DNA of 676 nt from Escherichia coli (GTDB taxonomy: Bacteria > Pseudomonadota > Gammaproteobacteria > Enterobacterales > Enterobacteriaceae): NCBI RefSeq assembly GCF_003334405.1, contig NZ_QOWM01000058.1, one strand, 5' to 3'. Both the position numbers and the translations under genes were made by a program. Numbering within the stretch: the first letter of the stretch is position 1; each line of letters begins with the position of its first letter. Positions 1 through 676 of the stretch are shown here, piece after piece. Below the pieces are notes generated by a model, which made no database searches, was not told the DNA's origin, and worked only from the letters and a program-made list of their open reading frames with translations.

Positions 1-676
1 GTAAGTCACTGTGTGGATTATCATAACGGTAGCGGGTGATATCGCCGTCAGGGGCAGTTTCCTGAATCAGACGGCCCAATTCATCATATTCCCGGCGCAA
101 TTCCAGCCCGTCAGGCCCGGTGGCTGACGTTAACTGGTTGTGGTGGTTATAGTAAAACGCCGATGCCCTGCCATCCGGCGTGGTTATGCGCGTGATGAGG
201 CCCGTCACCACATCCGGGCTGTACTCTGTTGTCCTGCCTGCGGCATCCGTCTGTGCCCTGAGCCTGCCCACGGCGTCAAACTGACTCTGCGTGACGCTGC
301 CGTCCGCGTGTTCCTTTTTCACCACCCGCTTCAGCCCGGCTTCGCCCTGCGTGTGCAGCACTTCACGGCGGTCCAGGCTGTCGGTGATGGTGATGCGGTC
401 TTTCTCATACTGATACGTGTAGCTTAAGCCTGCCGGGTTTAGCTGTTCTGTCACCCGCCCGTCGCTGTCGTAACGGTAACGGATTTCCGGCCGGCCCGTG
501 TGACGGTGCGCCACCATCCGGCCCCGGTATTTATCATCGTAAGTAAAGCTGCGCACCTGTTTGCCACTACGGTCATACACCACCGCCAGTTCGCCGCGTG
601 GCGTCCAGCCATAGCGCACCAGCGGCGCGGCAGGTAAATTCTCCGGGTATTCCGGGTCGTGCGTCAGCCACACGGC
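1..676 (-). CDS. Rhs-family YD-repeat core protein (polymorphic toxin scaffold), internal fragment, partial at both ends
   Basis: Hand translation of the reverse complement, with codons ending at plus position 676 (base 1 is a partial codon), gives 225 residues and no stop: AVWLTHDPEYPENLPAAPLVRYGWTPRGELAVVYDRSGKQVRSFTYDDKYRGRMVAHRHTGRPEIRYRYDSDGRVTEQLNPAGLSYTYQYEKDRITITDSLDRREVLHTQGEAGLKRVVKKEHADGSVTQSQFDAVGRLRAQTDAAGRTTEYSPDVVTGLITRITTPDGRASAFYYNHHNQLTSATGPDGLELRREYDELGRLIQETAPDGDITRYRYDNPHSDL. It contains repeated YD-repeat signatures (YxYD followed by G/R-rich turns), which I recognise from memory as E. coli-type Rhs core (rhsA/B/C/D-like); I cannot tell which paralog from this fragment, so no symbol is given. 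Third-codon positions are strongly G/C-biased in this frame (about 20 of the first 25 codons), supporting the frame. Window GC is about 60% by hand count. No start or stop codon lies in the window. Confidence 0.93.

Follow-up and report, generated by a model that had tools for sequence, protein, structure and literature searches.

High G+C content of the Escherichia coli rhsA core as a probable family signature at a vertically inherited locus

Introduction

A G+C-rich core followed by an A+T-rich tip has been a textbook feature of the Escherichia coli Rhs elements since the 1990s, and this mosaic is already known in the literature together with the debate over a foreign versus an ancient origin. 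In the account of Jackson et al. (2009; PMC2935791), rhs genes have a core rich in G+C and a tip rich in A+T; the authors report a Serratia rhs core at 67.7% GC and find the composition of rhs genes of one clade to be dissimilar between genomes. The background to that study also documents long cores as recombination substrates. The GC of Rhs cores is not mentioned in the review of type VI secretion systems (T6SS) PMC6730261 or in PMC2530875. The preliminary description of the DNA analysed here had noted that Rhs cores of the E. coli type are GC-rich, in agreement with Jackson et al.

We analysed a stretch of 676 nt from E. coli, hereafter the window. Its closest described relatives are RhsA, RhsB and RhsC of E. 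coli K-12 (clade I, NF041261), and there is no difference to discuss, the window being this gene. The K-12 gene has the clade-I layout of a core (61.6% GC) ending in the motif PxxxxDPxGL, a tip of 40% GC and AT-rich downstream genes. Several solved Rhs shells, all of them distant in sequence, are also matched. The YD-repeat segment can be aligned over residues 12-222 (E = 2.6e-38) with Tse5 of Pseudomonas aeruginosa (8cp6), and matches extend to T6SS Rhs cores including that of Salmonella bongori (8qjb-d), to Tre23 (7pq5), the RhsA-type structure 7q97 and Tse15 (8uxt). K-12 is not known to possess a T6SS that could deliver an Rhs protein.

A second point of comparison is the class of 'alien' genes defined by composition. 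Under the Lawrence-Ochman rule a gene is 'atypical' when its G+C at third codon positions (GC3) lies more than 8 points over that of the genome (quoted in PMC7042692). The window resembles such genes in its GC3, which exceeds the genome by more than this margin, and in its codon-position GC, which is that of a genome of 60-62% GC. It differs from them in that its locus is orthologous in the sister species, has diverged to the same extent as its flank, and shows the same kind of GC offset in every host examined.

Results

The window is an internal segment of a clade-I rhs core

Identity between the window and rhsA of E. coli K-12 MG1655 (NZ_CP032667.1 119639-120314) is 100%, and the match covers codons 293-517 of the 1377 in this gene. 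A single one of the six reading frames is free of stop codons, running on the minus strand from window position 676 down to 2 (225 codons). The translation gave a colinear match to positions 301-525 of the 1261 in the NCBIfam model NF041261 (RHS_core; E = 2.2e-128, 429.9 bits), a score under the whole-protein cut-off of 2000 bits because the window comprises only 225 aa of about 1250. TIGR01643 (YD_repeat_2x) was matched at E = 7e-21 with 73.8 bits, compared to a cut-off of 15.8, and Pfam PF05593 (RHS_repeat) five times at significant i-Evalues of 8.4e-8 to 9.4e-4. The features are as follows; coordinates refer to the window unless the K-12 rhsA locus (L001) is named.

L001 17419-21552, minus strand: K-12 rhsA, with the window match at L001 20001-20676
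2-676, minus strand: internal segment of the rhs core coding sequence, with neither start nor stop in the window
20-472, minus strand: RHS/YD repeat region (PF05593, TIGR01643)
377-472, minus strand: RHS repeat, residues 69-100 (PF05593)
230-328, minus strand: RHS repeat, residues 117-149 (PF05593)
164-280, minus strand: RHS repeat, residues 133-171 (PF05593)
107-205, minus strand: RHS repeat, residues 158-190 (PF05593)
20-88, minus strand: RHS repeat, residues 197-219 (PF05593)
140-427, plus strand: 95-aa open reading frame from the mechanical list, antisense to the rhs frame and wholly inside it

Identity to K-12 rhsA, the RHS repeats and the RHS_core model bear out the assignment to an Rhs core made in the preliminary description: the window lies in the interior of the conserved core of an E. 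coli rhs gene belonging to clade I. By homology, it is predicted to encode YD-repeat beta-strands in the wall of the shell ('cocoon') that encloses the variable C-terminal toxin in solved Rhs proteins. Sequence searches with the translation also returned teneurin-like proteins. Scanning the window against Rfam at E values up to 1 revealed no RNA family. The DNA repeats in the window are limited to one imperfect direct pair of 19 nt and one imperfect inverted pair of 15 nt, both seemingly fortuitous or a reflection of the underlying YD repeats. The plus-strand reading frame at 140-427 was rejected as a gene, as it is a shadow frame expected of a GC-rich coding strand and nothing supports a gene there.

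Distribution and copies in E. coli

Of 5426 complete E. coli genomes, 3885 (72%) carry the window sequence, in 1-7 copies each (median 3), and the gene was not found in the other 28%. This distribution is compatible with gain or with loss and shows that such turnover of the rhs gene does occur within E. coli. Sequence records matching the window at 99% or more number 972, and an identical sequence is labelled rhsA, rhsB or rhsC depending on the strain. Over the full core, K-12 rhsA and SE11 rhsC share 97.9% identity. Because the cores are 98-100% identical, the window may derive from any of these paralogues. Only 2 of the 12129 matching places in E. coli genomes are on plasmids, the rest being chromosomal.

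In E. coli strain 11899A_LBHALD the window is split into two pieces across 806 nt of rhsB (NZ_CP130447.1 3035222-3036027), which points to about 130 nt having been duplicated inside this core. At least four copies with identical core segments are present in Trabulsiella odontotermitis TbOT1.10 (L023-L026), several of them at contig ends, and most homologues in the protein database are 'partial' proteins, with member counts in the thousands, from contigs about 1 kb long. Assemblies thus appear to break at repeated Rhs cores.

The window lies inside the GC-rich block of the rhs mosaic

The core of K-12 rhsA (codons 1-1247, 3.7 kb) has a GC content of 61.6% and a GC3 of 0.721. It ends in PVTNTDPLGL at residues 1238-1247, an instance of the PxxxxDPxGL motif located outside the window, and is followed by a tip of 130 aa whose codons show a GC of 40.3% and a GC3 of 0.277. 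The downstream genes yibA and yibG have 33.7% and 32.3% GC, respectively. The same landscape of core, tip and downstream GC was found at the rhsC locus of SE11. The window is situated wholly inside the GC-rich block and contains no compositional boundary.

Downstream of K-12 rhsA, a trough of 32-38% GC extends over L001 13500-17400. Besides yibA and yibG it contains an Imm57 immunity gene with a frameshift and two orphan 'RHS repeat-associated core' fragments. At L001 16001-16500, GC rises to a spike of 54%, where the orphan core fragment at 15570-16526 is located. The region is the array of displaced tips reported by Jackson et al. (2009; PMC2935791).

Base composition of the window is atypical for the host, but not extreme

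The window contains 407 G+C among 676 nt (60.2%), exactly the count made by hand in the preliminary description. Over the 675 coding bases the value is 60.1%, with 63.6, 46.7 and 70.2% at the first, second and third codon positions of the minus-strand frame (GC1, GC2 and GC3), and local GC in 150-nt windows varies from 0.53 to 0.65. As host baseline we used 283 kb of K-12, composed of the rhsA neighbourhood without the rhs element and five 50-kb stretches round the chromosome. GC of this sample is 0.508, and that of the flank local to rhsA is 0.522.

Among 676-nt windows of the K-12 sample (mean GC 0.508, sd 0.057), 2.3% reach 0.602. In-frame windows of 225 codons, drawn from 205 long-ORF gene proxies, have a mean GC3 of 0.571 (sd 0.087) and 3.8% of them reach 0.702, a value attained by 4.4% of the 205 proxies themselves. 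All 30 annotated genes within 20 kb of rhsA have a lower GC3 than the window (mean 0.570, maximum 0.661). A simple binomial at p = 0.508 gives a z of about 4.9, whereas by the empirical spread of the genome the window stands at about +1.65 sd. It therefore belongs to the upper tail of the host genome and is atypical, not an extreme outlier. The preliminary description had called the window atypical on the proviso of a host near 50% GC, and had named comparison with the genome and the flanking genes as the check. With a host sample at 50.8% GC, this holds: both GC and GC3 are raised relative to the 283 kb and to the 30 genes, the window ranking in the top 2.3% for GC and the top 3.8% for GC3. 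The converse case raised there, a host of about 60% GC in which such a composition would be ordinary, does not apply to E. coli.

Compared to codon-weighted host coding DNA (0.560), the GC3 of 0.702 is 14 points higher and thus beyond the 8 points of the Lawrence-Ochman rule. For a total GC of 60.2% the Lawrence-Ochman regressions (PMC7042692; values computed here) give 63.9, 43.0 and 69.6% for GC1, GC2 and GC3. Since GC3 matches its regression value, it carries no information beyond total GC. The bias at third positions noted in the preliminary description is therefore real, but 'strong' overstates a moderate elevation that is implied by 60% GC. For the window as for the entire core, GC1 and GC3 agree almost perfectly with the values that the regressions give at a genome GC of 60-62%, which is also the expected look of an unameliorated import.

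Both amino-acid composition and synonymous choice contribute to the excess

Recoding of the window protein with host codon usage resulted in a GC of 55.4% and a GC3 of 0.542. Host coding DNA has 52.2% GC and the window 60.1%, so that the excess of 7.9 points splits into about 3.1 points due to amino-acid composition (about 40%) and about 4.8 points due to synonymous choice (about 60%). The encoded protein is rich in Arg (11.1% versus 5.3% in the host) and Thr (9.3% versus 5.5%), contains more Tyr, Asp, Pro, His and Gly, and is poorer in Lys, Asn, Ile, Phe and Met; GC2 is 0.467 compared to a host mean of 0.417.

Synonymous usage differs significantly from that of the host (G = 306, 41 df). The shares of CGG (0.30 versus 0.11 in the host), GGG (0.22 versus 0.15), GTG (0.72 versus 0.38) and CAG (0.95 versus 0.65) are increased and C-ending two-fold codons are commoner, while CGT, GGT, GCT and ACT are rarer than in the host. 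The latter four codons are preferred in highly expressed E. coli genes. As they are reduced in the window, the pattern is not one of translational optimisation.

The GC offset recurs in Rhs cores of other hosts

An alignment of 13 homologues, used for a scan of one genome per species, detected 35 loci. Removal of metagenome bins, short contigs and identical duplicates left 22 loci in 11 genera, represented by Escherichia albertii, Pseudocitrobacter, Citrobacter, Buttiauxella, Phytobacter, Trabulsiella, Superficieibacter, Atlantibacter, Serratia, Mixta and Delftia. An Enterobacter locus from a metagenome-assembled genome (MAG; L011) and the other MAG or short-contig loci were left out of the offset statistics since their host assignment is unreliable. 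Each locus was compared to at least 2 kb of its own flank, from which the rhs gene and the 5 kb adjoining it downstream were excluded, and these flanks of 2-14 kb served as an approximation of the GC of the host genome.

In all 22 loci, GC of the segment that corresponds to the window exceeded that of the flank, by a mean of +8.1 points (range +1.6 to +16.6), in hosts whose sampled GC is mostly 50-57%, low-GC hosts not being among the loci; the corresponding offset in K-12 is +8.0 points. GC3 was above the flank in 21 of the 22 loci (mean +9.7 points), and GC2 of the homologues was 0.42-0.51. Core GC spans 0.55 in Serratia silvae (flank 0.50) to 0.70 in Delftia (flank 0.69) and correlates with flank GC at r = 0.61. 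Within one Phytobacter genome, rhs clades have GC contents of 0.59, 0.65 and 0.66. Because clades of one genome differ in this way, the offset is not one fixed value. The Serratia silvae segment (L037 10001-10975) is the exception to the synonymous offset of the other 21 loci, with a GC3 of 0.583 versus 0.595 in the flank and a 5-point GC excess confined to first and second codon positions.

Third positions of these cores are heavily diverged. Identity at third positions between K-12 and other enterobacterial genera is 0.47-0.60, and 0.32-0.44 for Mixta, Serratia silvae and Delftia, where about 0.30 is expected by chance. At 0.58, Pseudocitrobacter is too diverged to serve as an outgroup with which substitutions between E. 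coli and E. albertii could be polarised by reliable parsimony. Among the genomes scanned, one per species, no genuine cross-genus pair exceeded 85% nucleotide identity, and the same scan found no near-identical core in an unrelated donor of matching composition. Given that the offset is present in all 22 loci, including lineages with heavily diverged third positions, it is a trait of the Rhs family, as opposed to a stamp left on E. coli by a single donor. Lineages that separated long ago have each retained the offset, in line with the composition data of Jackson et al. (2009; PMC2935791).

Several matches are located in assemblies labelled as unrelated taxa. An Oscillospiraceae MAG (L007 793-1464) contains a segment with 98.1% nucleotide identity to the window, a 553-nt contig of Rheinheimera sp. 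A13L (L039 322-553) is identical to it over 232 nt, and a 253-nt contig of Methylobacterium frigidaeris (L041 1-253) shows 80% identity. Bins assigned to Lentisphaerae, Akkermansia and Collinsella (L010, L021, L032 and L034) share 70-73% identity with the window. Such enterobacterial Rhs core fragments on short contigs under the names of unrelated taxa probably reflect contamination or misbinning, not transfer.

The E. albertii locus is orthologous and has diverged like its flank

The core of E. albertii (L008) shares 91% amino-acid identity with the window. The 8.9 kb upstream of it correspond to the E. coli kdp operon and ybfA, with a match at 91.9% in 5424 of 5426 genomes. In E. coli SE11 this kdp-ybfA flank is directly followed by rhsC, which is the order also seen in E. 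albertii. Over 3.7 kb, the E. albertii core is 92.0-92.4% identical to K-12 rhsA and SE11 rhsC, and over 7.8 kb the kdp operons of the two species are 91.9% identical. At the E. albertii kdp-ybfA locus, the core was thus neither missing from the site in the sister species nor discordant with its flank. Equal divergence of core and flank at an orthologous site implies vertical inheritance of a locus that the common ancestor already possessed, and excludes that E. coli imported the core recently. Jackson et al. (2009; PMC2935791) likewise concluded that the E. albertii rhs loci predate E. coli. As a distance of about 8% between the two species leaves too little time for amelioration to become apparent, an older transfer is still conceivable, and an ancient foreign origin of the Rhs family is possible.

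Downstream of SE11 rhsC (L042 25061-26199), the element carries the ISAs1-family transposase fragments ybfQ and ybfD at its distal end. The annotation shows no mobility gene alongside K-12 rhsA.

Discussion

The preliminary description read the raised G+C as the mark of a horizontally acquired core. The compositional part of this reading stands, GC and GC3 being atypical for the host; that this composition marks a horizontally acquired segment is not supported, in view of the offset in all 22 loci, the co-divergence with E. albertii and the amino-acid share of the excess. We consider it probable that the raised G+C is a signature of the family, maintained at a vertically inherited locus, and not the mark of a recent import. 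The raised G+C extends over the whole 3.7-kb core. Of the roughly 8 points over host coding DNA, about 3 come from the amino acids of the repeats and about 5 from G/C-ending codons. The offset of about +8 points is a property of the Rhs core family across the hosts examined, and vertical inheritance of the E. coli locus goes back at least to the ancestor shared with E. albertii. The synonymous part may be kept up by a fixation bias towards G/C, for which GC-biased gene conversion among recombining, nearly identical core copies would be the most plausible source; alternatively, it could derive from ancient or ongoing exchange with GC-richer hosts. That the synonymous excess is actively maintained by GC-biased gene conversion among cores of 98-100% identity, recombining with each other and with incoming tips, is a tentative proposal that we regard as possible but rather doubtful.

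The classical interpretation, shared by the preliminary description and the Hill laboratory, holds that the core was transferred from a donor of about 60-62% GC too recently to have ameliorated. It accounts for a GC3 14 points over host coding DNA and past the Lawrence-Ochman limit of 8, for the fit of GC1 and GC3 to the regressions of a 60-62% GC genome and for synonymous usage far from that of the host (G = 306). It also agrees with the patchy distribution (3885/5426 genomes), with the ISAs1 transposase fragments downstream of SE11 rhsC and with the title of Wang, Zhao and Hill (1998), according to which the subfamilies diverged prior to their acquisition by E. coli. However, the core at the E. 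albertii kdp-ybfA site differs from its E. coli counterparts by as much as the flank does (92% versus 91.9% identity), the offset of +8 points recurs in 22 of 22 loci of 11 genera in spite of heavily diverged third positions, and the scan contained no near-identical cross-genus pair. Moreover, the Rhs family is ancient in enterobacteria according to Jackson et al. (2009; PMC2935791), and the 40% of the excess driven by amino acids says nothing on origin. We therefore judge a recent transfer unlikely.

Less probable still is that the protein alone dictates the composition, with the demand of the YD-repeat shell for Gly, Arg, Asp, Thr and Pro explaining the whole excess. The raised GC2 (0.467 versus 0.417), its range of 0.42-0.51 throughout the 22 homologues and the surplus of Arg, Thr, Tyr and Asp at the expense of Lys, Asn, Ile, Phe and Met all point to a contribution of this kind. 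Recoding with host codons nevertheless reached only 55.4% GC and a GC3 of 0.542, compared to the observed 60.1% and 0.702, and synonymous usage differs significantly from the host. The recoding calculation refutes amino-acid demand as a complete explanation and leaves it as a partial cause. The remaining reading, an ordinary composition in a host that itself has about 60% GC, has practically no probability: it is refuted by the 100% identity to K-12, the sample GC of 0.508 and the local flank GC of 0.522.

A maintained signature at a vertically inherited locus, which we favour, means that a parametric signal is here unmatched by phylogenetic evidence of recent transfer, as the offset occurs in every host examined and the E. 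albertii locus is orthologous. The GC and GC3 signal of an 'alien' gene coincides with an orthologous, co-diverging locus and a family-wide offset, and composition alone is therefore insufficient. For Rhs, it should not be counted by itself as evidence of recent transfer. The regularity of the offset of about +8 points across hosts provides a modest, testable lead on how base composition is kept up in recombining repeat genes. If GC-biased conversion were indeed responsible, Rhs cores would constitute a natural test case, within single genomes, for biased gene conversion in bacteria.
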